Source: Candidatus Sericytochromatia bacterium
GTDB lineage: Bacteria > Cyanobacteriota > Sericytochromatia > S15B-MN24 > UBA4093
Direction: 5' to 3'
Assembly: GCA_036676985.1 (NCBI GenBank)
Contig: JAKFBU010000039.1
Coordinates: 148,845 to 212,844 of the forward strand
DNA length: 64,000 nucleotides
The translations under genes and the position numbers were made by a program. The notes under the pieces are model-generated. The model was not told the DNA's origin, did no database searches, and was given only the letters and a program-made list of their open reading frames with translations. Each line of letters begins with the position of its first letter. Position 1 is the stretch's first letter. Positions 8,540 to 43,239 of the stretch are shown here, one piece after another.

Positions 8540-10744
8540 TCAGTTGCCGCCCTGGACCGCGGAGGCCGAGACCTTGAGCTTCAGCTCGGCCAGGAGGCGC
8601 AGGCGCAGCTCGTCCGTGCTGCGCAGGCTGACGGCCTGGCCGTTGGTTCCCGGCGACGTGAGGCGGAGGCCCACGTACTTCGCGTCCTTGAAGAAGGCCA
8701 TCTCGGTGGCCGTGAGCTCGATCTGGGACGTCTGGGTCGACGTCCCGTCACCCAGGGCAAGGGACTTGGTCACGGGCGCCGGATCCGAGAAGGGGTCGTC
8801 GGTCTGGGTGAAGAGCAGGTTGAGGACCAACGGCAGGTGCAGGCCGTTGTCGATCAAGGCGGTAATGACGAAGCGGCTCACCAGCCCCTGGGCGAGGCGC
8901 TCCTTGGTGGAGGCGTCCAGGTTGAGGGGCGAGGCCGGCTTGAGGTCGTAGGGCTTGACGGCCTGGTCCAGTCCCATGGCAGGGAAGATGACGCTCAGGG
9001 GGACCGAGACCGCCACCTGGCCCGACAGCTCGTCGTACCGCGTCAACGTCACGAGCGACGTGCCCGAGTTGATGGTCACGTTGCCGCCGAACTGCAGCTC
9101 CTTGGCTCCGGCGTTGAGGATCGAGATCAGGTTGGAGTTCGTCTCGTTGATGTCGATGATCGACGTCCGGACGTCGCCGATCGCCGCGGCGGGCTCCATC
9201 ACGGCGTTGCCCGTGTAGGTCAGCGGCATGGTCGAATCGTCGGCGAGCACGGCGCGGGCATCGAGGGCGAGCACTCCCGGCAGCTGGCTCTTGTTGTTGA
9301 TCTTCAGCTGGATGCTCACCCGCGCGAAGCCGATGCCCAGGTCCTTGAATTCCTTGGGAAGGCTGATGGGGGTCGAAGAGCTGCTGATGGGCACCGTCCG
9401 GTTGAGGGTGGCGGACAGGCTCTCGAAGGCGAGGGCCTGCACCGTCGCGCTGCCGGAGAGGGATTGCCCCGCCTGGTAGACGGCCATGCCGCCCGCCAGG
9501 ACGAGGTTGGCCGGGATCTCGGGGGACACGGCCTCGGTATCGTAGGACTGGCCCGATATGGTGACGCCGACGTGTGTCCCGACGATGGTGGCACCCGCCA
9601 GATCCAGGTCGACCTCCTTGACGGCGGGAGTCAGGCCGCCCGCCGGGATGACGATCGACCGGATGTAGGGATCGCCGTCCGCCTCCTTGATCCCGCTGAG
9701 CGTGACGGTCATGGCGGCGTTGACGCCGAAGCCGTTCTCCAGGTGCAGGCGGATGGACCCGCTCGCGATCTGGATGTTGGAGATCGAGCCGATGCCGAGA
9801 TCGGATGGCATGGGGAGGTCGAGGCCATCGGACACGGTCGGGAAGGCCTTGGCCGGCAGCGAAATGGCCTTGATCTTGATGTCCAGGTCGAGATCGATGG
9901 AGATCTGCTGGGAGCCGTCCAGGGACTTGACGTTGAACCCCACGGGCAGCTGTCCCTTGGTCTTGAACGAGATGGTCAAGGAGCCCGCGATGACGACGTC
10001 CGGATCGAGGTCGATGGCGACGGTGCCCGACGTGAGCGGGATCGCGGGGTGCGCGTCGAGCCACGTCTGGTTGAGGACCGTTCCACCGCTCTTGACGACG
10101 AGGTTCTCGATCTCCATGCCCAGGGAGGCCTGATCGGCCGTACCGGCCCCCGCGACCTGGTTGACGATGTCCAGCGTGATCTGAGAGCCCGCGTCCAACT
10201 TGGCCTTGCGCAGGTCCGAGAGGCTCGTCGTCTTGCTCTGGGTCTGAGAGGGGAAGGGAACGCTCGCCGGCATGAGGATGGGAGTGATGGGGCTGTCGAT
10301 TGCGTCCTGCACCGTCCCGAAGGGAGGGACCGACAGGCTCGTGATCCCCAGGTCGTCTAGCGACAACCTGGGACCCGAGAGCGACTGCGCCAGAGGCGGA
10401 TCCGGCAGCGTCTGGGCCGGAAAGGTGATGGGATCCTGGGCATCGACCTTGAGGTTGTCGCCCACCTTGATGGTCGGGATCTCCTGGGCATCGGGCTCGA
10501 GCGCATAGGTCTGGTCGGCTCCGACGACAATCGGGACCGAGCCGCCCGACTCGAGGAGCTTCGAGACGGGCAGGGAAGCCTCGCCGAGTCCCGCCTTGAG
10601 ATCCACCGGCCACGACGGCAGGGCGTTCACCGGGTTGCCCGAGGCCAGTCGGCTGGCCGTCTGGAACAGCTCGAAGCCGCAGCCCGTCAGGAGGAGGCTC
10701 GCGGCCACCAGCAGGGTGAAGAGTCGGATGAGGGGTCGCCGCAC
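8540..10744 (-). CDS. Large beta-rich hypothetical lipoprotein
   Basis: Lipobox LTGC; 734 aa, alternating beta-strand pattern; no recognised catalytic motif. Confidence 0.75.
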   Translation of the reverse strand: MRRPLIRLFTLLVAASLLLTGCGFELFQTASRLASGNPVNALPSWPVDLKAGLGEASLPVSKLLESGGSVPIVVGADQTYALEPDAQEIPTIKVGDNLKVDAQDPITFPAQTLPDPPLAQSLSGPRLSLDDLGITSLSVPPFGTVQDAIDSPITPILMPASVPFPSQTQSKTTSLSDLRKAKLDAGSQITLDIVNQVAGAGTADQASLGMEIENLVVKSGGTVLNQTWLDAHPAIPLTSGTVAIDLDPDVVIAGSLTISFKTKGQLPVGFNVKSLDGSQQISIDLDLDIKIKAISLPAKAFPTVSDGLDLPMPSDLGIGSISNIQIASGSIRLHLENGFGVNAAMTVTLSGIKEADGDPYIRSIVIPAGGLTPAVKEVDLDLAGATIVGTHVGVTISGQSYDTEAVSPEIPANLVLAGGMAVYQAGQSLSGSATVQALAFESLSATLNRTVPISSSSTPISLPKEFKDLGIGFARVSIQLKINNKSQLPGVLALDARAVLADDSTMPLTYTGNAVMEPAAAIGDVRTSIIDINETNSNLISILNAGAKELQFGGNVTINSGTSLVTLTRYDELSGQVAVSVPLSVIFPAMGLDQAVKPYDLKPASPLNLDASTKERLAQGLVSRFVITALIDNGLHLPLVLNLLFTQTDDPFSDPAPVTKSLALGDGTSTQTSQIELTATEMAFFKDAKYVGLRLTSPGTNGQAVSLRSTDELRLRLLAELKLKVSASAVQGGN

Positions 10745-12303: not shown

Positions 12304-13887
12304 CTACTTGGCCTGGGTTTCGGGGTTCTCGGCGAACCACACGTCCTCGGTCATGTGGCGCTTCCCGTTCTGGACGAAGTAGGACTGGATCACGTACTCG
12401 CCATGCTGGTTCTTGAGAATGCTCGGCTTGGATCCGAGCTCGGTGATGCCGAGGGATGCCAGGGTGTAGAGCTCCTTGGGCTGGACCGTCGCGTCACGGT
12501 TGCTGTCGACCCAGACCTTGAGCGAGTCGAGCGTCTTGCCCTTGAGCGCCGCGTTCTTGTTGTAGAGCTTCGACCACGTGACGTTGTCGTTCATCTTCAG
12601 GACCGACGCCAGGTTGATCTGGGTAGCCTTGTAGGCGAGCTTGTGGTAGCCGTTGGCATAGCCGATGGCGTCACCGAAGAGCGCGTGGGCGCTGATCATG
12701 CCGTCGCCAGCCGCGGCCTTGGAGACCCGGCCGTTGGTGTCGTCCACCAGGAAGCCGTCGCCGTCGGCATTGAGCCACTCGATGTTGCGCTTCTTGCCCT
12801 CGGCCGTGATGTCGAACCACACGGCGCCGTTGGCGACGAACTTGTTCTCCTTGAGGCGCTTCTGGGCGGTCGAGGTGCCGGTCACGCCGATCTTGCCGTC
12901 GTGGTTGAGGTCCAGGGCGACGGGCGAGTGGGTGGTCCAGCTCGAGGCGACCATCCAGCGTGAGATCTCACGCAGGCGAGCCGCCGTCGGCTGGGACTCG
13001 ATGACGTGCACCGGACCGTTGACGGTGTCGACCCAGGTGTCGATCTTGAGACCCACCGGGTTGATGCCCTTGTCGACGAGGTCCGCAAGCATGGTGTACC
13101 GGCCGGCCTGAGCCAGCGAGTCCACGATGCCCACGCCCGCCAGCTTCTTGAAGGCCGTTGGGTTGTTCAGCAGGAGGTTCTGGACCGAGCCGTTGGCGTA
13201 CTGGGAATAGGTCGCCGCGTCGTACTCGGCGCTGTTGATGTAGTTGACGCCGTGCGAGTAGGACAGCGAGTGGGCGCCGTCGGACATGGTGTAGATGTAC
13301 TCACCGCCGTTGTAGCTGGTGGCCATGTTGCCGCCGATGTTGTTCTGGAAGGCCTTGACGATGCCGCCGTTGAGCGCGGTGGGACCGATCAGGTCGACCA
13401 GCTGCTGGGTGTTGTCCGCCGCCATGAGCTTGCCGGCGAGTGCGACGTCGGCCGCGGAGGCCTTGGTGGCCGTCAGCGAGCCGGACGTGAGGTCGGCCTT
13501 GATGCGAGCCAGCGTGGTGTTGAAGTTGAAGTCGTGGTAGGCCGCGCCGTCGTAGTTGGCGCTGGTGGCCCGGGGGATGCCGTAGCGGCTGTAGACCGCA
13601 GCCAGCTCCGACTCGTTGAGCGCGCGGTTGAGGCCCAGGATCTGGGCGAAGGCCTCCTGGATGGTGGCATCGTAGCGACCGATCGGGTTGGCGATGAACA
13701 TCTGGTTGCGCACGAAGCGCTTGCGGGCGAACTCCACCCAGTAACCCGGCTTGCCGTTGTTGGTGCCGCGGGTGTAGGTCTTATCCGACTCGATGACCAT
13801 CTCTTCGGCCTGGGCGGGGGTGAGGATACCAGCGGTGGAAGCGATTACCAGCGACAGGGCGAGGAAGGCGATTTTCCTGTTTAGCAT
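12304..13887 (-). CDS. Secreted protein with C-terminal SPM-like domain, 'family A'
   Basis: Start MLNRKIA after GAGGAG; signal AQA-EE; HSPVALDLNHDG...EDVWFA; C-terminal half nearly identical to 17205. Confidence 0.8.
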   Translation of the reverse strand: MLNRKIAFLALSLVIASTAGILTPAQAEEMVIESDKTYTRGTNNGKPGYWVEFARKRFVRNQMFIANPIGRYDATIQEAFAQILGLNRALNESELAAVYSRYGIPRATSANYDGAAYHDFNFNTTLARIKADLTSGSLTATKASAADVALAGKLMAADNTQQLVDLIGPTALNGGIVKAFQNNIGGNMATSYNGGEYIYTMSDGAHSLSYSHGVNYINSAEYDAATYSQYANGSVQNLLLNNPTAFKKLAGVGIVDSLAQAGRYTMLADLVDKGINPVGLKIDTWVDTVNGPVHVIESQPTAARLREISRWMVASSWTTHSPVALDLNHDGKIGVTGTSTAQKRLKENKFVANGAVWFDITAEGKKRNIEWLNADGDGFLVDDTNGRVSKAAAGDGMISAHALFGDAIGYANGYHKLAYKATQINLASVLKMNDNVTWSKLYNKNAALKGKTLDSLKVWVDSNRDATVQPKELYTLASLGITELGSKPSILKNQHGEYVIQSYFVQNGKRHMTEDVWFAENPETQAK

Positions 13888-14104: not shown

Positions 14105-15634
14105 CTAGCGGGCGATCCAGTTGTTGATCGAGACGGAGGCCTTCCCCTTGGCGATCGAGCCGTTGAGCAGCCACTGGCCGTTGGCATAGGACAGCTTCAG
14201 AGTGCACTCGTTGTCGCCGCTGCTATCCACGTACGACGCCTTGTCCGTCGAGAGCTTACCCTCATACCAACCCGACGACGTGATCTTCTTGGGCACGTTC
14301 ACCGTGATGGTGAGTTTCTTGCCGTTGTTCACCGAGAAGTCCAGGTACTCGGCGGCATTGGCAGGGTTGTAGAACTTGCGGTCCCAATCCGTGGCCTTGA
14401 CGTTGACCTTGGCCGCAGCGAGGGTCGCTGCGACGGCCTTCTTGGATTCCTCGGCAGCCTTCTTGGCAGCCTCCTCGGCAGCCTTGGCAGCTTCCTCGGC
14501 GGCCTTCTTGGCGGCCGCGTCCGCAGCCTTGGCAGCCTCTTCGGCAGCCCTCGCCGCGACCTTGGCGGCCTCGTCAGCAGCCTTCTTGGCGGCGTCCTCG
14601 GCCTTCTTGGCTGCCTCGGCCTTCCGGGTGGCTTCCTCCTTGCCCACGGTCGGATCCTTGATGGAACCCTTGTCCTCGGCCTTCTTGGCGACCGAGGCGA
14701 CCGCCTGGTCGGCCTTGAAGGTCACGCGCTTCTGGGAGCCCGACAGGGCGGTCTTGCTGTTGCCCGAGCCGCTGTCAGACATGAAGGTCGAGGCCTTGGT
14801 GCTCTGGGCCTTGTCCGACTCGGCGACCTTGCCGGCGAGCAGGTCGACCACGTACTGCTGGTAGGTGGTCTGCGTCGTGTCGTCGACGCCGGTCGAGACG
14901 AGCTTGTCCAGAGAGGGGACGATGTCGCCCCGCACCCAGGCCGTCGGCTTGTCCTCGCGCTTGGAGTAGGTGTGGGTGTCCACCACCTCCTGGCCCAGGG
15001 CCGTCTTGACGGTCTTGCTGGCCCGGTAGGTGTTGTCGTAGGTGTCCACCCGGCGCGTCTCGTAGCCGAAGCGATCGACGATCCGGTACGGCGTGTGGAC
15101 GTTCCGGTAGAGGGGCACGTCGTAGCGACGGACGGTCGCGGTCTGCGAGGTCAGGCGCCACTTCTTGGTGTCCGTCTCGCGGACCTCGGGGTCGTAGCTG
15201 GGCTCGCCCGAGAGCTTCTGACGGCCGCCCGAGTAGGTCTGCTGCTCGTTGCGGCTGCTCACGAACGTGCTCGCGACCAGCTGGTCGCTGCCCGACTCGG
15301 GACCGTCCGGGATGAAGTCCTTGACGTTCTCCGTGCCCGCCAGGAGCCATTCGTTGCTCGCCGGGTCCTGGCTCGTGATGCTCGGGGCCCGCGCGGCATC
15401 CGCCAGGTCGGCACCCGCCGGGGGCGTGCTGCCGGGCACGAAGTAGCGAACGGTGTCGCTGCCCACCAGGGTCCACCCGGCCCCCGGGTTGGCGGGATCC
15501 GCGACGAAGTACTTGCGGGGGTTGGTCTCCACCAGCTCCCAGTTGGCGCCGGGGCTCTGGGCCAGGGCCGGCGACACGAGGATCGAGACGCTCAGTAGCG
15601 ATGCGGCGAGGCCGCAAAGAAGCTTGCTTTTCAT
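14105..15634 (-). CDS. Secreted hypothetical protein, 'family B' paralog 3, with AAKKAAEE helical linker
   Basis: Signal ALA-Q; shared core with 10883; TolA-like Ala/Lys/Glu linker; distinct C-terminal domain. Confidence 0.8.
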   Translation of the reverse strand: MKSKLLCGLAASLLSVSILVSPALAQSPGANWELVETNPRKYFVADPANPGAGWTLVGSDTVRYFVPGSTPPAGADLADAARAPSITSQDPASNEWLLAGTENVKDFIPDGPESGSDQLVASTFVSSRNEQQTYSGGRQKLSGEPSYDPEVRETDTKKWRLTSQTATVRRYDVPLYRNVHTPYRIVDRFGYETRRVDTYDNTYRASKTVKTALGQEVVDTHTYSKREDKPTAWVRGDIVPSLDKLVSTGVDDTTQTTYQQYVVDLLAGKVAESDKAQSTKASTFMSDSGSGNSKTALSGSQKRVTFKADQAVASVAKKAEDKGSIKDPTVGKEEATRKAEAAKKAEDAAKKAADEAAKVAARAAEEAAKAADAAAKKAAEEAAKAAEEAAKKAAEESKKAVAATLAAAKVNVKATDWDRKFYNPANAAEYLDFSVNNGKKLTITVNVPKKITSSGWYEGKLSTDKASYVDSSGDNECTLKLSYANGQWLLNGSIAKGKASVSINNWIAR

Positions 15635-35467: not shown

Positions 35468-35497
35468 TTGACAACTGGCAAGGGAAGTTGATATTCT
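35468..35497 (+). promoter_or_regulatory. Sigma70 promoter of tRNA-Pro/tRNA-Gly
   Basis: TTGACA-N18-TATTCT. Confidence 0.7.
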
Positions 35498-35508: not shown

Positions 35509-35585
35509 CGGGGCGTAGCGCAGCTTGGTAGCGCATCTGCTTTGGGAGCAGAGGGTCCTGGGTTCGAATCCCAGCGCTCCGACCA
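35509..35585 (+). tRNA. tRNA-Pro(TGG)
   Basis: Cloverleaf; anticodon loop TTTGGGA; GTTCGAATCC; CCA end. Confidence 0.97.
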
Positions 35586-35599
35586 TTTACCTAACCCGT

Positions 35600-35674
35600 G
35601 CGGGTGTAACTCAGTGGTAGAGTTCCTGCCTTCCAAGCAGGCTGTCGTGGGTTCGAATCCCATCGCCCGCTCCA
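35600..35674 (+). tRNA. tRNA-Gly(TCC), intact
   Basis: GCGGGTG...CCTGC-CTTCCAA-GCAGG...GTTCGAATCC...CGCCCGCTCCA. Confidence 0.97.
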
Positions 35675-35679
35675 AACAA

Positions 35680-35714
35680 GAGGCCCTGGCGTGATGCCAG
35701 GGCCTCCTTCTTTT
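35680..35714 (+). terminator. tRNA operon terminator (also repeated in array units)
   Basis: GAGGCCCTGGC-gtgat-GCCAGGGCCTC + T-rich tail. Confidence 0.75.
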
Positions 35715-35724
35715 CTCCGAGTTG

Positions 35725-35776
35725 GCGGACGGAATGTGAAACGAATGAAACAGATGAAACAAGGCTTGTTTCATGG
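35725..35776 (+). promoter_or_regulatory. Iterated TGAAAC binding-site motif (copy 1; others at 38066-38116 and 38865-38916)
   Basis: TGAAAC x3 at 9-bp period then inverted GTTTCA. Confidence 0.6.
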
Positions 35777-35802
35777 ACAATCAGGCAGGGAATATCCAGA
35801 AT

Positions 35803-36360
35803 ATGAGACCAGGACCCGTACTGCTTTCAGTTCTTGCCGTAGCCATCCTAAGTGGGTGTGGTGTTGTCAGGAATATTGCGGCATCGGCTCCCACGCCTCA
35901 AAGCCTTTCCTTTCGAACAGTAGCCCCAACTCCCGGATCTGGCAGCGATGTGCTCGACGGGATTCGCGCGTCTGGGCTAGTAGCACGTAGTCAGTCTGAA
36001 CTGGTTAGAGAGCTTGTAAATCGTAGATACGAGACAGAGCAAGTATCCGATAATCAAGCCTATGAGGCCTTTCTCAGCAAGTCGATTCCCACGTTAGATT
36101 TCTCAACAGAACAGGGCATTCTCGCTACTTTTGGCGCACAAGGTAACACGTGTTACCGCGGCGAAATTGTTTCTGTTGAAGAGCGTCAAGATCGAATCGT
36201 TGTACACACTGTTCTTTGGGCACCCCGCTACGGGCAAAGCTGCGGAGCGGCGATTGTCTATCCCTACCACTACGTTGCGATCCCGAAGTCGGCAAAACCA
36301 GTCGAATTTCGCGAACCCGTTAGAAAAGAAGTTCCCGGAGCCTGGTGGCAGATCTTCTGA
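35803..36360 (+). CDS. Lipoprotein with PrcB C-terminal-like domain (cassette 1)
   Basis: Lipobox LSGC; PTLDFSTE..ILATFGAQ...IVSVEE..DRIVVH...AIVYPYHYVAIP. Confidence 0.7.
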   Translation: MRPGPVLLSVLAVAILSGCGVVRNIAASAPTPQSLSFRTVAPTPGSGSDVLDGIRASGLVARSQSELVRELVNRRYETEQVSDNQAYEAFLSKSIPTLDFSTEQGILATFGAQGNTCYRGEIVSVEERQDRIVVHTVLWAPRYGQSCGAAIVYPYHYVAIPKSAKPVEFREPVRKEVPGAWWQIF

Positions 36361-36377
36361 TAAAGGTTGATTAAACG

Positions 36378-36785
36378 ATGTTCCGCCTAAAGTTCGCCGG
36401 GGCGATTGCTGCTGGCGTGCTCGTAACAAGTTGCAGCTTCCCTGCCTCTGGAGTGGTTGTTGGCACGATCACGCACCTTTCTGTCAAAGGGTATTTCGGG
36501 ACCAATGTGCCAGTAACCATTCGGGCAAGGGCAACCTTTCCTGGGGCTATCGACCATGCGTCTCTAACGACAGACGTTTCAGCTCGATCAGGTAACACGA
36601 TCCGGGTCATGGCCACAGCCAGTCGAGCCCAACATTTTCTTGGGCTTGGGGTTTTCCCCGTTGATACATCCAGCCCAAACAATACCGAGATAGAGACGAC
36701 AGTTAGCGTAAGTAGCCCTGGCGTATACGTAATTGAGGGATTGCAAGATGGAGCGGTCACGGCTTCCACTTCCTTCAGCATTTGA
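36378..36785 (+). CDS. Hypothetical lipoprotein (cassette 1)
   Basis: Lipobox VTSC; beta-rich; lower GC. Confidence 0.6.
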   Translation: MFRLKFAGAIAAGVLVTSCSFPASGVVVGTITHLSVKGYFGTNVPVTIRARATFPGAIDHASLTTDVSARSGNTIRVMATASRAQHFLGLGVFPVDTSSPNNTEIETTVSVSSPGVYVIEGLQDGAVTASTSFSI

Positions 36786-36829
36786 CTTGCCAGCAGTGCG
36801 GAAATGGCCTCGCTTTGCTGCGACACACA

Positions 36830-36926
36830 GCGGGTGTGCCACCGATGGTGGCAGCAAGCAACTCCGTGGTAGAGTTCCTGCCTTCCAAGCAGGCTGTCGT
36901 GGGTTCGAATCCCATCGCCCGCTCCA
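36830..36926 (+). repeat. tRNA-Gly-derived repeat R1: full tRNA + 22-nt hairpin insertion after nt 8
   Basis: GCGGGTGT[GCCACCGATGGTGGCAGCAAGC]AACTCCGTGG...CGCTCCA; one substitution versus the intact tRNA; terminator copy follows. Confidence 0.92.
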
Positions 36927-37076
36927 AACACGAGGCCCTGGCTTGATGCCAGGGCCTCGAACTATCTCCAGTTCAGTTCTATCGCGCGAAGGCTCCGTAC
37001 TTCGATTAATGAACAGAAAGCCTTATGGCGGGTAAGAAGAAAATAATCCCTATAGTCAACTGGAGTTAGAGCTCGT

Positions 37077-37916
37077 ATGGAAATCCGTGATGTCACCATT
37101 CCTGGCTTGTCAGGCGCTTTGGTAGACATGGACATAAACAGCACCGGCCGGCTCGCATATATATGTAAATCTTTAAACGGCTACTCAGTATTTGTAGATG
37201 GCGAGAAGGTAGATATTGGGCAAGGCGTTCCCTATGATATTCGCCTTCTCTCAAATGATGAATTCGTCTTGTTTTGCCACCACGGCGAATATATCGATAA
37301 ATATTATCGACTTGAAAGGTATCAAAAATCCGCTCATTTAGGCTGGCATAGCAATTGGTCCTGGAGTATTGACCCCCAGTACGAGAATATCACCTGTACG
37401 GATCGATGGATTGCCATCGGCTTTTCCGATATGAATAGAAAAGGCGTCTTGGCAATTCCTGACCATGGGCACTCCCTGGTTTACTATAATGACATATTCT
37501 GGGAAGAAGCAGTCCGCGGCGTCGAGATATACGCAATGTGTAAAGGGCCGCGGAATTCAATCTATTTTCATCCCTACACCGATTTTCAACTTGTGCAATG
37601 GAATCTTGATACGATGACCCAGGTCGTATGGGTAACACCTGAGGCGGTTCACGGATCAAATGCAGTTTCCGTAACGGATGGTACGGCCTACTTTTACTCG
37701 CCCTATGATGAAGAACAGTATGAGGGAGATGAATTCAACTGGAAAAACGTTAGAATAACTGAGATAAGGGAGCATTCGTTCTATTCCTGGGAGATTGGAA
37801 GCTCGGTAGTAAAAAAAGTTGGCGAGTACAAGCTGAACGGGTCCACAATTAGAGGCCTTCCGGGGGGACGATTCCTTGTTATTCATCGAGACTCGTACTC
37901 AATCATCGCGTTTTAA
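37077..37916 (+). CDS. Hypothetical protein, aromatic/beta-rich, low GC (cassette 2)
   Basis: 279-aa ORF filling the space between R1 and R2. Confidence 0.7.
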   Translation: MEIRDVTIPGLSGALVDMDINSTGRLAYICKSLNGYSVFVDGEKVDIGQGVPYDIRLLSNDEFVLFCHHGEYIDKYYRLERYQKSAHLGWHSNWSWSIDPQYENITCTDRWIAIGFSDMNRKGVLAIPDHGHSLVYYNDIFWEEAVRGVEIYAMCKGPRNSIYFHPYTDFQLVQWNLDTMTQVVWVTPEAVHGSNAVSVTDGTAYFYSPYDEEQYEGDEFNWKNVRITEIREHSFYSWEIGSSVVKKVGEYKLNGSTIRGLPGGRFLVIHRDSYSIIAF

Positions 37917-37919
37917 GAA

Positions 37920-38016
37920 TTGGGTATGCCACCTCTGGTGGCAGCTAGCAACTCAGTGGTAGAGTTCCTGCCTTCCAAGCAGGCTGTCGTGGGTTCGAAT
38001 CCCATCGCCCGCTCCA
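37920..38016 (+). repeat. tRNA-Gly-derived repeat R2 with 22-nt insertion
   Basis: TTGGGTAT[GCCACCTCTGGTGGCAGCTAGC] then tRNA nt 9-75 identical. Confidence 0.92.
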
Positions 38017-38225
38017 AATGCAAGCCCCCGAGCCAGTCTCGGGGGCTTCTTCGTTCTCCGGGCCAGTGGACGGAACGCGATACAAATAAAACAAATGAAA
38101 CTACTTTTGCTTCATCTGCTGTCAGGGGTACGGTTGAGGCGCCGAGGACAAGTACGGCCTCGTTTGTGACTTACTCTAGATTGGCCGTATGGCCTTATCC
38201 AAGGTAAACTTTCTTGGTCCCTCCG

Positions 38226-38657
38226 ATGGCCTTTGACGTGACGCCGCGCCTTGATGACAAGGGAATTACTTTGAAAACAGTTCGAGACCCGGCCGACGGG
38301 ATCCACAGCAGAATACAGAACGGCACGATATATTCCTGGAATGTAAAGGACCTCTGGGCGTTGGCGGCAAGGCTCCCCGTCTTTCAAATTGACCCACAAG
38401 CCGTCATAGATCTGGACAAAGATGGATGGTTCGTTGGCAAAGAGCCAGTACTTCGGCTGGTGCTAGAGCACGTTCGGCGAATCCAAGACGCCGATCTCTC
38501 CTATCCGGTTATTTTGGATGCTGATGGGTCGATAATGGATGGAGCCCATCGTGTGGCCAAGGCAATCCTTGAAGGACGTCAGACGATTGACGCCGTTCAG
38601 TTTCGATATCTTCCTCCTCCATCTCGAACTGCGCTGGTAGCTGGCCAGGACAATTGA
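38226..38657 (+). CDS. ParB/Srx-like domain protein (cassette 3)
   Basis: DLSYPVILDADGSIMDGAHRVAKA matches the ParB N-terminal DGxHR motif; start uncertain (38214/38226). Confidence 0.65.
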   Translation: MAFDVTPRLDDKGITLKTVRDPADGIHSRIQNGTIYSWNVKDLWALAARLPVFQIDPQAVIDLDKDGWFVGKEPVLRLVLEHVRRIQDADLSYPVILDADGSIMDGAHRVAKAILEGRQTIDAVQFRYLPPPSRTALVAGQDN

Positions 38658-38720
38658 CTTTAGCTTTCGGCTCATCAGTGGCGGAATTCCTGACATAGTA
38701 GAAGCATGGTCTGGATGTCA

Positions 38721-38816
38721 GCACGTGTGCCGCGACGGTGCCTGCGAGCACCTCAGTAGAGTAATTCCAGCCTTCCAAGCAGGCTGCGGTGGGTTCGAAT
38801 CCCTTCGCCCGTTCCA
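38721..38816 (+). repeat. Degenerate tRNA-Gly-derived repeat R3
   Basis: GCACGTGT[GCCGCGACGGTGCCTGCGAGC]ACCTCAGTAGAG...CCTTCCAAGCAGG...GTTCGAATCCCTTCGCCCGTTCCA; terminator and TGAAAC motif follow. Confidence 0.88.
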
Positions 38817-38997
38817 AACACGAGGCCCTGGCGTTTGCCAGGGCCTCCCTCTATTCGCCAAAATGCGGACGGAAAATGAAACGAATGTAACAGATGATAC
38901 GGGGCATGTTTCATGGCTCATGTGATCTATTCTGTTATCAGGCTGCGCGATATTTACATCAGTCATATCAAACAATCGCTGAGGGCTCATAAACGCT

Positions 38998-39543
38998 ATG
39001 CAAGCAAAACACCTCTTACTCCCGGTGGTCTGCATTTCGCTACTCTCCGGCTGCGGAATGGTTCGTAATATTGCGGGGGCAAGCCCGCTCGCTCCATCTA
39101 TCTCTTTCCGGGTTGTATCACCTGCCAGTAGCCACACAGGCCGTTTCAACATTCGTGCGCAGAACCACGTCTTTAGAACCCAGCAAGAAGTCGATAGCTT
39201 CCTCGCTACTGTGCCTGTAACCGCATTCGACGGCAATGGAAACCAGGTTAGTGAAACTCTCCCCGCTATCGATTTTTCAAAAGAAGTCGGAATTCTTGTG
39301 CTCTTTGGTGCCCAATCCGACGGAGGCTACAGCGGCGATATCTCCGCGATTGAAGAGAAGCAAGACCGATTGATCGTCCATCCGCTCCTCTGGACTCATA
39401 GTAATGAGCCTGGCGTAGGCTACACGATGGCCATCGTTTACCCCTACAAATATGTAGCAATCCCAATTAGTTCCAAGCCCATCGAGTTTGCTTCCACCGT
39501 TGATCGCCCACGCCCCAGTCCCTGGTGGTCGATCTTCTATTAG
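38998..39543 (+). CDS. Lipoprotein with PrcB C-terminal-like domain, paralog of 35803 (cassette 4)
   Basis: LSGCGMVRNIA; PAIDFSKE..LFGAQSDGGY...AIVYPYKYVAIP; WWSIF end. Confidence 0.72.
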   Translation: MQAKHLLLPVVCISLLSGCGMVRNIAGASPLAPSISFRVVSPASSHTGRFNIRAQNHVFRTQQEVDSFLATVPVTAFDGNGNQVSETLPAIDFSKEVGILVLFGAQSDGGYSGDISAIEEKQDRLIVHPLLWTHSNEPGVGYTMAIVYPYKYVAIPISSKPIEFASTVDRPRPSPWWSIFY

Positions 39544-39547
39544 GCTG

Positions 39548-39644
39548 GCGGGTGTGGCACCTATGGTAGCAGTAAGCAACCCAGTGGTAGCGTTCCTGCC
39601 TGCCAAGCAGGCTGTCGTGGGCCGGAATCCCATCGCCCGCTCCA
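39548..39644 (+). repeat. tRNA-Gly-derived repeat R4 (anticodon position reads GCC, T-loop mutated)
   Basis: GCGGGTGT[GGCACCTATGGTAGCAGTAAGC]AACCCAGTGG...CTGCCAA...GGCCGGAATCCCATCGCCCGCTCCA. Confidence 0.9.
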
Positions 39645-39782
39645 TTTCAAAGCCTCAGCTTGATGCCCAGGCCTCGTGTTTGGAGCGAACAACAACCATC
39701 GTATAGACGTGTTGACACGAACATAAAATCATCGTAATGTCTACTGTCTCCCAATCACGACTATGCAGACAGGGACGTAACG

Positions 39783-40151
39783 ATGCATAAGAAAATGACT
39801 GTCCTCGGCCTTTGCTTGACCACCGGCCTCCTGCTGAGCGGTTGCATTTCGACGCAAAAAATGCAGTTCGACCGTGCATTTGACCCTACCGCCGGAGACA
39901 GCCGGAATGTGGAGGTCCTCGACAGTGCCAACGTCAAGCGCTCCTATAAGGTTATCGGCATCGTTGAGGCGGATGCAGTTGCCGACTACGGATTGAACAA
40001 CGTACTGTCGGCCTTGAAACTAGAGGCCAAAAAGATGGGCGGACAGGCCGTCATTGATGTGCAGCGTGTCCCAATGTACTCCAAAACGTTTTGGGATGGC
40101 TTGTTCCCGAGTGGCCAGCGCTGGAGCGGCAAGGTCATTACCTGGGAATAG
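39783..40151 (+). CDS. Small lipoprotein, YbjQ-like fold (cassette 5)
   Basis: Lipobox LSGC; YKVIGIV...LKLEAKKMGGQAVI; own TTGACA at 39712. Confidence 0.65.
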   Translation: MHKKMTVLGLCLTTGLLLSGCISTQKMQFDRAFDPTAGDSRNVEVLDSANVKRSYKVIGIVEADAVADYGLNNVLSALKLEAKKMGGQAVIDVQRVPMYSKTFWDGLFPSGQRWSGKVITWE

Positions 40152-40173
40152 TTCACCGATTCCATCGTCCAAG

Positions 40174-40262
40174 CCTGCCTACATAGCAGGCTGTCGTGCG
40201 ATCTCGCACCAAGCAAGAGGCCCTGGCTTGATGCCGGGGCCTCTTGCTTGGAGCGGGCGATG
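40174..40262 (+). repeat. Highly degenerate tRNA-Gly repeat R5 + terminator + inverted tRNA 3' end
   Basis: CCTGCCTACATAGCAGGCTGTCGTG, GAGGCCCTGGCTTGATGCCGGGGCCTC, then TTGGAGCGGGCGATG (reverse complement of the tRNA 3' end). Confidence 0.8.
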
Positions 40263-40404
40263 AGGGAAACAAACTGAGCAGGCTCCCCCTGCACGCTTGA
40301 GTAAGCTTTCCACGAAATTAGGGTAACCTGTCTAGTACGTGCTCGCAGCGGGTGGGTGGACAGCCAGAGACGCGCCCGAGCTCGAGACGTAGAGGAGGGC
40401 CACG

Positions 40405-40893
40405 ATGACGAAGTCCAGGATCTGCCTGTGGTATGACCGTGACGCGGAGGAAGCTGCACGCTTCTACGCCCAAACCTTTCCCGATAGCACGGTCGGCGCG
40501 GTGCAGCGAGCGCCCTCGGACTTCCCGAGCGGCAAGGCAGGCGACGTGCTGACGGTCGAGTTCACGGTCTGTGGGCTGCCTTGCCTGGGCCTCAATGGCG
40601 GGGACGCGTTCCCGCAAACCGAAGCGTTCTCCTTTCAAATCGAGACGGAGGACCAGGCGGAGACCGACCGCTATTGGAACGCGATCGTCGGAAACGGCGG
40701 TGAGGAGAGCGCGTGTGGCTGGTGCAAGGACAAATGGGGCGTGTCCTGGCAGATCACGCCGCGTATCCTGACGGAGGCGATGGCCCAAGGGGGCGACGTC
40801 GCGAAGCGCGCGTTTGAGGCGATGATGGAGATGCAAAAGATCGACGTCGCCAAAATCGAGGCGGCGGTGCGCGGCGAGACCGAGTCGAAATAA
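40405..40893 (+). CDS. VOC/PhnB-family protein (3-demethylubiquinone-9 methyltransferase-like domain)
   Basis: CLWYD..AEEAARFY, LNGG, CGWCKDKWGVSWQI, MQKID. Confidence 0.9.
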   Translation: MTKSRICLWYDRDAEEAARFYAQTFPDSTVGAVQRAPSDFPSGKAGDVLTVEFTVCGLPCLGLNGGDAFPQTEAFSFQIETEDQAETDRYWNAIVGNGGEESACGWCKDKWGVSWQITPRILTEAMAQGGDVAKRAFEAMMEMQKIDVAKIEAAVRGETESK

Positions 40894-41168
40894 ATCACCC
40901 GACTCCCGTATCGAAGCCTCGGCCTTGCGCCGGGGCTTCGGTGTTTCTCCGACCAAATGTGACCCGTTAAGGCCGTGACTCAAGAAGGCGCGAAGCGATC
41001 GGCTCGCTCAAAGGCAAATCGCTCACCGGAAAGTGCTTGTGGAAAGCATCCCATGACTGTTGGTAGAAGCACCGTTGAACGAAGAACGCTTGCCTGGCAG
41101 CATATCGAAAGGCCTCGTTTGATGTGCCATTTGCTTGGCACGGCGCGATAGCAAGAGGGAGCGAAGCG

Positions 41169-41867
41169 ATGAATCACAACCTCGGCAGCATCCTGATGAT
41201 GGGGCTCATCTTCTGTCCACTGGTGCTCACGGGTTGCTTGACCGCGCCTTCGGCCACGACGCTGTTTCAGCATGACACCTCACGATCGGCCCCGGACGGC
41301 TATCAGGTAGCCGCCATCCGCAGCTTCTCCAAGCACAAGGGCGACTACCTTCCGGCGCATAACTTCAAACTAGAGATGGATGCGGTCGTGGTCGGCTCGT
41401 TCCAGAACGCCCAGGGAGTCCCACGATCGCCTGTCCTTCAAGAGGCTGATTGGCCGGCAATCGACCTGCGAACCGGTGGGTTCAAAGAGGTCAGCGGACT
41501 CGAGGCGGAAGTGGAAGTCATCGAGTACCGGAACGGTGACGATCCCATCACTCACAAACGCGCCGGTAAGGCCAAGTATAAGAACATCACCCTCAAACGG
41601 GGTCAATTCAGCGATCCTTCGGTAGCCGACTGGCTTAAAAAGGTCCTCGCTGGAACAACGGACCGTAAAAGTGGCAGCATTATCTACCTCGACCGCGAGG
41701 GGAGCGAGATATTACGCTATAACTTCTTCGAGGCATGGCCAGTCCGCTGGAAAATCGCCAATCGGGACAGTCAAGCCATCGTTGAGATTGAGTTTGCGGT
41801 GGAACGAATTGAGCCAGCCGGCAAAGCCCTGCCTGGTGATCCGATTCCCGGAATCGATGTTCGTTAG
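41169..41867 (+). CDS. T4-gp19-like / eCIS tail-tube domain fused to a lipoprotein signal
   Basis: Lipobox LTGC; FKEVSGLEAEVEVIEYRNG...KYKNITLKRG...W...RKSGSIIYLD...RYNFFEAWPVRW. Confidence 0.82.
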   Translation: MNHNLGSILMMGLIFCPLVLTGCLTAPSATTLFQHDTSRSAPDGYQVAAIRSFSKHKGDYLPAHNFKLEMDAVVVGSFQNAQGVPRSPVLQEADWPAIDLRTGGFKEVSGLEAEVEVIEYRNGDDPITHKRAGKAKYKNITLKRGQFSDPSVADWLKKVLAGTTDRKSGSIIYLDREGSEILRYNFFEAWPVRWKIANRDSQAIVEIEFAVERIEPAGKALPGDPIPGIDVR

Positions 41868-42009
41868 AGCATAACTTAGCGTTCTCAGACGCTCGACCCG
41901 ATAGAGAAATGGACTTTCCACGGGAATTCCACCCGAAGGCCCGATCGGGCATTTGTGGCAGCCGTCCTCATTTTGAAGTGGTTCGCGATGCGATGAGCGC
42001 TCCACAGAC

Positions 42010-42195
42010 CTACAGCACTGGTCGCCCGAGAACAGTGCCACGGGGCTTGAGCGGATTATCTGGCTTGCCAATCTGAATTCCCTGGGTGTTATCCAAAAAA
42101 GCAAGCAATAATCCCATGGCCAAGATGGCACTCGCAACTATCAGCAAGCTCTTAAGAGGGTTGCGAACAAAGAAGTCTGCAAATCGTTTCATCAC
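42010..42195 (-). CDS. Small single-TM hypothetical protein
   Basis: 61 aa, one hydrophobic helix, AGGA RBS. Confidence 0.45.
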   Translation of the reverse strand: MMKRFADFFVRNPLKSLLIVASAILAMGLLLAFLDNTQGIQIGKPDNPLKPRGTVLGRPVL

Positions 42196-42280
42196 TTTTC
42201 CTATTGCACTTCATACGACTCCTGCTACTTGGAGTATTTGAGGCGGCGCGTGCTACGGAGTTAATTCTATTAATCGGGGT

Positions 42281-42374
42281 CGGGTGTGTACATCCCCAAT
42301 GGTGGCAGCAAGCAGGTCGAATCCCATCGCCCGCTCTCCCCCTCGAGGCCCCGACGTAACGCCGGGGCCTCGAG
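42281..42374 (+). repeat. Internally deleted tRNA-Gly repeat R6 + hairpin
   Basis: CGGGTGTG...ATGGTGGCAGCAAGCA joined to GGTCGAATCCCATCGCCCGCTC; GAGGCCCCG..CGGGGCCTC hairpin. Confidence 0.82.
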
Positions 42375-42534
42375 CCTTTGCCACTCCAACGAAAAACGGG
42401 GGGAAATATTTCTCGCCGATTGACCTAGGACGGTCACGGTCAACCAGCTATCACAAGACCAAAGACCCGCTCCTGTCCCCCGATTGGCCGCCCGGCGCAA
42501 ACTTGGATCCCGGGCGAGAAAGGGGATACTCCCC

Positions 42535-43239
42535 ATGGCGACCGAACCAATCAAATTGACGCCCGGCAGGCTCACCGCCACGATTCTCTACCTCCTGGCC
42601 TACCCCTTCTTGATCTTGGGCCTGGGAGGCGACAGGAAATGGGCCGAGGGCTGGATCTTCAGCACCTGGTTCGTGACGTTCTGCATCGCGACCATCGTCT
42701 ACCTCTACTTCAACGATCCCGCCCTGCTCGCCGAGCGTTACCGCCGGCCGGGAAAAGACAGTGGCGAACAGACGTGGGACCGGTACTTCATCTATGCCAT
42801 CGGCATCTTCTTCATGGCTTGGTTCGTCGTGATGCCGCTGGATGCCCGGAGATTCGACTGGTCCCCGGATTTCCCCCTCTGGCTCGTCTTGACCGGAGCC
42901 CTGTTGCTGGCAGGAGCGACCTACTTCATGTTTCGCGCCTATTCGGACAACACGTATCTGTCCCCTCTGGTCAGGATCCAGGCCGAACGTCAGCAGCGAG
43001 TGGTTTCAACGGGGGTCTACGGCTTCGTGCGGCACCCCATGTACCTGGGAGCCATTTGCCTGATGCTGGGGGCCCCCCTGTTTCTGTCGTCACTCGGCGG
43101 CCTCGCGATCGGCGTGCTCATGGTCGCCCTATTGATCGCTCGTATCGTCGGTGAAGAACAGGTGCTCGTCTCCGGACTGGAAGGCTACCAAGAGTACCGG
43201 AACAAGGTGAAGTACCGACTGATTCCGCACATTTGGTAA
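42535..43239 (+). CDS. Isoprenylcysteine carboxyl methyltransferase (ICMT/Ste14) family membrane protein
   Basis: VVSTGVYGFVRHPMYLG, RIVGEE..L, Y..Y...VKYRLIP. Confidence 0.88.
   Translation: MATEPIKLTPGRLTATILYLLAYPFLILGLGGDRKWAEGWIFSTWFVTFCIATIVYLYFNDPALLAERYRRPGKDSGEQTWDRYFIYAIGIFFMAWFVVMPLDARRFDWSPDFPLWLVLTGALLLAGATYFMFRAYSDNTYLSPLVRIQAERQQRVVSTGVYGFVRHPMYLGAICLMLGAPLFLSSLGGLAIGVLMVALLIARIVGEEQVLVSGLEGYQEYRNKVKYRLIPHIW

Follow-up and report, generated by a model that had tools for sequence, protein, structure and literature searches.

The window analysed here is a 64,000-nucleotide stretch of the genome of a Candidatus Sericytochromatia bacterium (GCA_036676985.1, contig JAKFBU010000039.1, positions 148,845 to 212,844 of the forward strand), in which an island of about 6.7 kb with a low GC (guanine plus cytosine) content (35675-42372) lies directly behind the gene for tRNA-Gly(TCC). 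The island consists of about seven small cassettes and holds six repeats or fragments derived from this tRNA, R1 to R6, all in the same orientation, which duplicate the sole tRNA-Gly(TCC) gene but are not functional. R1, R2, and R4 are 97 nt each and comprise tRNA positions 1-8, 22 extra bases after T8, and positions 9-76. Our results suggest that the R copies are probably the junction scars of serially recombined, integrase-less cassettes, with the 22-nt block as the element-side arm. On balance, the block would be a shared, inherited mark of the cassette-side arm in all of the copies that bear it, and would also disable the copy. The live tRNA gene and its copies are as follows.

35600-35674, + strand: functional tRNA-Gly(TCC) at the head of the array, without the 22-nt block (ARAGORN; Rfam tRNA 69.4 bits, positions 1-71)
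35680-35706, + strand: terminator hairpin of the tRNA operon, with related hairpins after R1, R3, R4, and R5
36830-36926, + strand: R1, block at 36838-36859 (GCCACC-GAT-GGTGGC-AGCAAGC), acceptor stem intact, 1/67 differences 3' of the block
37920-38016, + strand: R2, block at 37928-37949, with loop TCT and linker AGCTAGC
38721-38816, + strand: R3, decayed, with a 21-nt version of the block at 38729-38749 and the D arm destroyed
39548-39644, + strand: R4, block at 39556-39577 (GGCACC-TAT-GGTAGC-AGTAAGC), T loop changed
About 40174-40249, + strand: R5, a fragment with the anticodon arm and terminator and no block
42280-42372 (tRNA-derived part ~42280-42340), + strand: R6, the last scar, with host-type genes beyond

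An earlier note, made from the letters of this DNA, had described the block in R1, R2, and R4, with remnants in R3 and R6 and none in the functional tRNA. The sequences and coordinates that it quoted are exact, and the remnants consist of the 21-nt version in R3 and the 3' half of the block in R6. In the latter copy, the 3' arm and linker (TGGTGGCAGCAAGC) are kept at 42300-42313 while the 5' arm has been replaced; an acceptor-like 5' sequence (TCGGGTGT) is present, tRNA positions ~9-52 are deleted, and the tRNA 3' end (42317-42336) and terminator (42344-42372) follow. A terminator-like hairpin trails every R copy. Decay increases with distance from the head tRNA: in the 3' part, R1 to R4 have 1, 0, 11, and 6 differences in 67 positions, and R5 and R6 are fragments only. 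R3 has a further two changes in the eight positions 5' of the block. 3' of the block, R2 matches the live tRNA at 67/67 positions; its 5' acceptor strand (TTGGGTAT) is changed at 3/8 positions.

As a set, the R copies lack the features of canonical tRNAs, namely a full-length cloverleaf match and an intact acceptor stem, D arm, and T loop. ARAGORN called none of them as a tRNA in the window. With the Rfam tRNA model RF00005 (gathering score, 29), only positions 9-63 were matched in R1 (38.7 bits) and R2 (45.0 bits), and R3 and R4 were not reported. Among R1 to R4, all helices are intact in R1 alone: R2 has lost acceptor pairs 1-72 and 7-66, R3 has lost acceptor pairs and the D arm, and R4 combines a D-stem mismatch with a changed T loop and a damaged hairpin. 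The anticodon arm of R4 (39580-39596) has the loop CTGCCAA, in which one change has turned the anticodon from TCC to GCC. The other Gly tRNAs of this genome have anticodons CCC and GCC; the head tRNA-Gly is therefore the sole TCC gene.

The strongest indication of how the array arose is a break in sequence identity at the block. R2 and R1 differ at 3/8 acceptor-strand positions and 3/22 block positions (6/30 5' of position 9) but at only 1/67 positions 3' of the block (Fisher p = 0.003). As R2 is divergent 5' of position 9 and identical to the live tRNA 3' of it, the block lies at a recombination boundary. Judged from these alignments, older cassette-side sequence is joined to recently exchanged sequence exactly at the block. 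A similar discrepancy is evident around the two PrcB_C-like lipoproteins encoded by cassettes 0 and 3, which share 43% protein identity, whereas the R, terminator, and leader (D7, described below) units that flank both paralogues are 76-100% identical at the DNA level; the repeat units have therefore been exchanged or homogenised and not merely co-inherited. Variants of the terminator are distributed as a mosaic among the copies.

Composition and gene content set the island apart from its surroundings. The GC content is 0.45-0.575 across 35.7-42.3 kb, as against 0.656 upstream and about 0.66-0.70 in the surroundings of the locus, and it differs from one cassette to the next. Beyond R6, a PEMT-type methyltransferase gene (42484-43239) has homologues in two relatives (G001 and G007; 66-69% nucleotide identity), whereas the cassette genes had no DNA-level match in five relatives; hence, the island spans the tRNA to R6. 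Within each of five cassettes the gap between the stop codon and the repeat is short (44, 3, 63, 4, and 8 nt). Searches of the cassette open reading frames (ORFs) against Pfam, PHROGs, and NCBIfam found no recombinase family. The cassettes are listed below.

35713-36829, + strand: cassette 0, PrcB_C-like lipoprotein 35773-36360 and 135-aa ORF 36378-36785; GC 0.52
36963-37919, + strand: cassette 1, orphan 279-aa ORF 37077-37916, stop codon 3 nt before R2; GC 0.45
38049-38720, + strand: cassette 2, D7-like leader and 147-aa ORF 38214-38657 (phrog_17560, function unknown)
38850-39547, + strand: cassette 3, D7 leader and second PrcB_C-like lipoprotein 38998-39543
39690-40159, + strand: cassette 4, 122-aa ORF 39783-40151 with a lipoprotein-like N-terminus
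40270-42279, + strand: distal cassettes, PhnB/VOC-type protein 40405-40893, gp19-like protein 41124-41867, and reverse ORF 41712-42137

Two of the cassette proteins deserve comment. The 279-aa protein had two matches among 5.8 billion proteins, its own fragment and one protein at 25% identity. The 247-aa ORF at 41124-41867 has a tail-tube gp19 or contractile-injection inner-tube domain (PF06841, 1.5e-29; TIGR02241) and a hydrophobic, lipoprotein-like N-terminus; it stands alone, with no further tail genes nearby.

The layout of the repeats suggests how such an array might be built. Each cassette ends with tRNA positions 1-8 and the 22-nt block, and the following cassette opens with positions 9-76 and the terminator. 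We infer that a circular cassette with one interrupted tRNA copy would recombine with the tRNA gene in the chromosome or with one of the other R copies, through either a trans-acting integrase or homologous recombination. Because the sequence shared with the live gene extends for 8 nt 5' of the block and for at least 68 nt 3' of it, exchange would always fall 3' of the block. The head tRNA would thereby stay intact, and the interrupted, dead copy would come to lie beyond the new cassette. The segment in common (68 nt plus the terminator and, in three units, a leader of ~45 nt) is long, so that homologous exchange would suffice. The suggestion in the earlier note of an element-side att half that also inactivates the duplicate tRNA agrees with the identity break at the block, the bounding of low-GC cassettes, and the decay gradient.

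Several observations weigh against this serial recombination of cassettes. The contig that carries the array (C39) has neither a PF00589 integrase nor a PF00239 resolvase: the five matches to the former in this genome are on contigs C61, C4, C62, C41, and C76, and the two matches to the latter are also on other contigs. At ~0.5-2 kb, the cassettes are far below the size of usual decayed islands, and the repeats take in tRNA positions 1-8, unlike ordinary att duplications. That the terminator and D7 leader are repeated as well is better explained by homologous exchange or by duplication than by a short site-specific core. No excised circle was seen, and the variants in cassette order seen in other sequencing runs cross 67-nt exact repeats or come from a 93%-alike strain and may be graph artefacts. 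Finally, the identity of the R1 and R2 stems beside six other differences (p = 0.03) leaves room for a constraint on the hairpin. Separately, a 441-aa tyrosine integrase match on contig C62 (10180-10713) lies ~0.7 kb from a tRNA-SeC gene (9407-9501) and not beside a tRNA-Gly(TCC) copy; an island is probably integrated at this tRNA-SeC gene.

Several features of the array resemble known processes. Tandem accretion at tRNA genes and 3' ends of elements that lack an integrase, known as cis-mobilizable elements (CIMEs), is an established process (PMC5704250). In such arrays, direct repeats from the target tRNA gene flank the units, the units are devoid of integrase and transfer genes, and the newest unit adjoins the intact tRNA while older scars have decayed. 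In the present array, the flanking repeats contain the 3' end of the target tRNA and the units are without integration and transfer genes. It differs from CIMEs in that the units are only ~0.5-2 kb, the repeat takes in the complete tRNA, positions 1-8 among them, together with the terminator, the distal repeats have a 22-nt palindromic block, and no cognate integrase or related autonomous element was found. Integration of elements commonly leaves fragments of tRNA genes behind (PMC9897764), and there, as here, non-canonical tRNA-derived sequence by a real tRNA may be missed or mis-called by gene finders; the copies in this array differ in being full length and split between positions 8 and 9 and are not 3' fragments. 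It is the combination of small units, tRNA positions 1-8 in the repeat, and a shared block that is unusual here.

The block itself forms a hairpin, which is perfect in R1 and R2 only. A perfect 6-bp arm with a 3- to 5-nt loop arose in 927 of 200,000 random 22-mers of local composition, indicating that the palindrome is not due to chance. The earlier note held that the stem is conserved while the loop varies. This holds for R1 against R2, in which 0/12 stem positions but 2/3 loop positions differ; it fails for the other copies. R4 has 2/12 stem changes (block positions 2 and 13), which fall in two separate pairs and break each without compensation, weakening the hairpin energy from -10.5 to -3.2 kcal/mol; pairing in R3 requires a shifted register and includes two G-U pairs; and R6 has lost the 5' arm. 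The note had also proposed selection on the palindrome. The probability that none of the six R1/R2 differences among the 30 positions 5' of position 9 would fall in the stem is 0.031, but this is a single post hoc comparison and the claim is weak. In the four-copy alignment of R1 to R4, with the cloverleaf and hairpin as the structure, 0/27 pairs had changed on both sides and the structure was no better than in shuffles. No origin of the block was found in the D loop (by eye) or elsewhere in the genome. The palindrome reflects either how the block arose or a putative binding site.

Searches elsewhere found no other example of the block, which is restricted to this lineage. A pattern of the block in IUPAC code, with up to two mismatches, had no match in 60 relatives (0/60). 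The exact pattern occurred in four stretches of a genome contig collection, with an ARAGORN tRNA in none of these, two of which were also read, in no stretch of a viral contig collection, and in eight stretches of metagenome contigs, none of which continued as a tRNA (0/8); a looser pattern gave 23 stretches in the viral contigs, with continuation as a tRNA D arm in 0/23. In 47 genomes of the class, a gapped pattern that allows any insertion of 12-40 nt found only the present genome (G000), plus a chance site in G032 without a tRNA. A covariance model of R1 to R4, run on these 47 genomes, recovered R1 (122.6 bits), R2 (113.3 bits), R4 (109.7 bits), and R3 (81.4 bits); the best score outside the array, 78.5 bits, belonged to an ordinary 75-nt tRNA-Gly. 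Some relatives also gave longer matches to the model, of 85-122 nt and scoring no more than 65.6 bits, whose starts lie upstream of tRNAs for which the BLAST alignment is ungapped; these were taken as alignments of flanking sequence and not as homologues of the block, although not every one was inspected individually. As the block was found nowhere else, the comparative test of stem covariation that the earlier note had proposed is limited to the four local copies, and these show none.

Within this genome, the block with up to three mismatches has 10 sites, 4 of them in the array, as compared to 5 sites for a reversed control. A REP/RAYT or IS200-IS605 hairpin element, which would be dispersed through the genome together with such a transposase, was considered and rejected on the basis of these 10 block sites versus 5 control sites and of the lack of a Y1 (HUH) transposase (PF01797, 0 matches in the genome).

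Contigs from independent sequencing runs also cover parts of the array; the 17 runs listed for it include no RNA run. The R2 block is covered by contigs from four runs of four studies, with 0-13 differences per contig, and a 1682-nt contig from a groundwater run is equivalent to 38562-40243 without a single difference, spanning R3, cassette 3, R4, cassette 4, and R5. Joints in another run (X5) give other cassette orders; several of these cross the 67-nt exact repeat, have sides of only 30-53 letters, or belong to a contig that differs at 36 of 513 positions. We regard these joints only as a lead and give them little weight as evidence of mobility.

A number of other explanations for the array have to be weighed. 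One is that the array is an integron-like platform, in which the live tRNA-Gly gene is the primary site, the interrupted copies are cassette-borne sites, and the palindrome, as two 6- to 7-bp inverted half-sites around a free 3-bp spacer, is bound by a recombinase or accessory protein encoded elsewhere and permits site-specific capture, excision, and reshuffling. We consider this unlikely. Compact units of one or two genes, each with a stop codon 3-63 nt from the repeat, resemble integron cassettes that end in a repeat, here a structured, imperfectly palindromic one, and the head site is distinct from every downstream site. Also in favour are the unchanged stem (0/12) and variable centre (2/3) of R1 and R2 and the rarity of such a perfect palindrome in random sequence (927/200,000), and cassettes appear in other orders in contigs of another study, with an intact R at the position of R6 (joints 37961>35644, 41871>39558, and 39610>42361). 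These joints, however, may be assembly-graph artefacts across exact repeats. There is no intI or other integrase beside the array or on the contig, the genome has no Y1 transposase, and R4 has a broken palindrome, R3 pairs in another register, and R6 has lost half of the palindrome. A 15-bp site with a 3-bp centre is small compared to the known cores of tyrosine and serine recombinases, and no second example was present in any searched collection. The repeat is, moreover, a copy of a tRNA gene and not an attC site; the R''/L''/L'/R' features of attC are not evident by eye in the R copies, and the cassettes differ from those of integrons in carrying their own terminators and, in some cases, a leader. 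A related and distinctly improbable proposal is of a tRNA-anchored platform served by a trans-acting recombinase, in which cassettes of ~1 kb are captured, excised as circles, and reshuffled between strains. If true, this would represent a cassette-capture system unrelated to integrons and of real interest, but nothing found here demonstrates such a system.

It is also conceivable, though we give it little credence, that R1 and R2 are expressed as tRNA-like RNAs or serve as processing signals in the 3' untranslated regions of the cassette genes, cut by RNase P or RNase Z or relieved of the block to give a working tRNA. Each R copy lies between the stop codon of an ORF and a terminator and would therefore be co-transcribed with the cassette gene; R1 has a perfect acceptor stem, keeps the T arm and anticodon arm, and folds as a cloverleaf with an extra hairpin at -39.6 kcal/mol (z = -2.0). 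The fold z-scores of R2 (-0.75), R3 (+0.40), and R4 (-1.23) are less favourable, there are no compensatory changes in the 27 pairs, and helices are damaged (the acceptor pairs 1-72 and 7-66 of R2, the D arm of R3, and the T loop of R4). A short insertion outside the anticodon loop recalls archaeal tRNA introns at non-canonical positions, but the genome is of a bacterial type, the copies are decaying, and the PF01974 splicing endonuclease had no match in this genome, whereas a control search matched 4/14 reference genomes, all of them archaea. In the R folds, a simple 6- to 7-bp hairpin starts at the 5' junction, and 7 nt of single-stranded linker lie at the 3' junction; the bulge-helix-bulge of archaeal tRNA introns is not apparent in them, although no dedicated search for this motif was made. 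As the block family was not found outside this genome either, the proposal in the earlier note of a novel tRNA-like RNA or a spliced intervening sequence finds no support in homologues, compensatory changes, helices, or a splicing enzyme. Plain local duplication, in which a neutral 22-nt indel arose in one tRNA-Gly duplicate that was then amplified by unequal crossing-over, with the intervening genes replaced, would require neither mobile cassettes nor a role for the block. A single common ancestor of all block-bearing copies, the duplication of the terminator and D7 leader alongside the tRNA, the mosaic of terminator variants, and the messy rearrangement implied by an inverted tRNA-end remnant at 40244-40267 would all fit this view, which we nevertheless judge to be improbable. 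Unequal crossing-over copies content, yet the cassettes are unrelated to one another save for the two lipoproteins at 43% identity; GC content differs from cassette to cassette, and the tight spacing of ORF and repeat recurs five times. It is very unlikely indeed that the array or the block is a mis-join in this metagenome-assembled genome. The assembly has 79 contigs and 5.09% contamination, and a 67-nt exact repeat is common to the tRNA, R1, and R2, which could have led to a wrong order of cassettes 0 to 2. However, the junctions between block and tRNA are unique sequence, the R2 block recurs in contigs of four runs from four studies, and R3 to R5 lie in one error-free contig of 1682 nt.

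The locus itself appears to be prone to change. The head tRNA-Gly is preceded by the following features.

35468-35497, + strand: predicted sigma-70-like promoter-like site of the tRNA operon
35509-35585, + strand: tRNA-Pro(TGG), first gene of the tRNA operon (ARAGORN; Rfam tRNA 66.2 bits)

In four relatives (G002, G011, G015, and G019), the tRNA-Pro/Gly pair is followed directly by a tRNA-Arg/His pair, whereas in this genome the latter pair lies at 63836-63999, 28 kb from the tRNA-Pro/Gly pair (35509-35674); within this 28-kb stretch, low GC content is confined to 35.7-42.4 kb. The spacing between the pairs is ~8.4 kb in G003 and ~13.5 kb in G004, with unrelated slot contents. These varying contents among relatives show that the 3' side of tRNA-Gly is a variable hot spot in the family. 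No tRNA-like fragments were found in the variable regions of G002, G003, G004, and G007, and the partial tRNA-Gly copies of relatives begin near position 28-29.

One part of the repeat unit, the D7 motif, is more widely distributed than the block. It consists of three TGAAAC direct repeats, 9 bp apart, and an inverted GTTTCA. In this genome it is confined to the array, where its three copies are as follows; it lies about 50 nt after the tRNA terminator.

35737-35773, + strand: D7 motif, first copy
38078-38114, + strand: D7 motif, further copy
38877-38913, + strand: D7 motif, further copy

D7 was detected downstream of tRNA genes in 5/9 family relatives, ~50-110 nt downstream of tRNA-Gly(TCC) or of a tRNA read by eye as tRNA-Thr(CGT), and in 0/51 genomes outside the family; a reversed control had no matches. 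The loci involved are L053 (14149-14185), L054 (~15262-15298, ~14200-14245, and 13187-13223), and L080-L089. Small genes of low GC content or a PrcB_C-like lipoprotein often come after the motif, and in G007 it precedes a homologue of this lipoprotein 15.6 kb from the tRNA. D7 is probably the leader of an ancestral downstream gene that was carried along in the repeat unit, and it may act as a promoter or operator or provide arm sites for a recombinase.

Some further rearrangements were observed near D7 copies in relatives and near the terminators in this array. At L085 (G004:C70:42138-42285), a partial tRNA-Gly (positions ~28-76), a terminator, and D7 lie directly after a gene end; the copy is of the G007-type allele and not of the allele of G004 itself and looks like a displaced original tRNA 3' end. 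At L084 (G007:C30), the 5' half of a tRNA, by eye a tRNA-Thr(CGT), occurs ~100-135 nt upstream of the D7 copy at 456793-456829; it stops at the anticodon loop, unrelated sequence and then D7 follow, and it may be a disrupted tRNA. Internal D7 copies at L087 and L088 (G007:C22) and at L081 (G005:C31) are preceded by a terminator and a conserved GT-rich stretch of ~30 nt. Two G007 copies of this element align locally with a score of 89; it was considered as a relative of the 5' part of R and rejected, being not similar (best shuffle p = 0.065). In the array itself, inverted remnants of the tRNA 3' end and trailer (40244-40267 and 39676-39687) lengthen the terminator palindromes after R5 and R4, respectively, the former remnant lying after the R5 fragment. 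Their form suggests a hairpin-centred inversion or template-switch event.

These findings have a practical consequence for annotation, since R1 and R2 exceed the Rfam tRNA threshold in part of their length and are nevertheless dead. If the copies are indeed the scars of serial cassette recombination, the locus would be a clear instance, in nature, of a tRNA hot spot for integration that accumulates tiny integrase-less cassettes. Critically, an insertion near the 5' end of the element-borne copy would then fix the site of exchange and spare an essential, single-copy tRNA.

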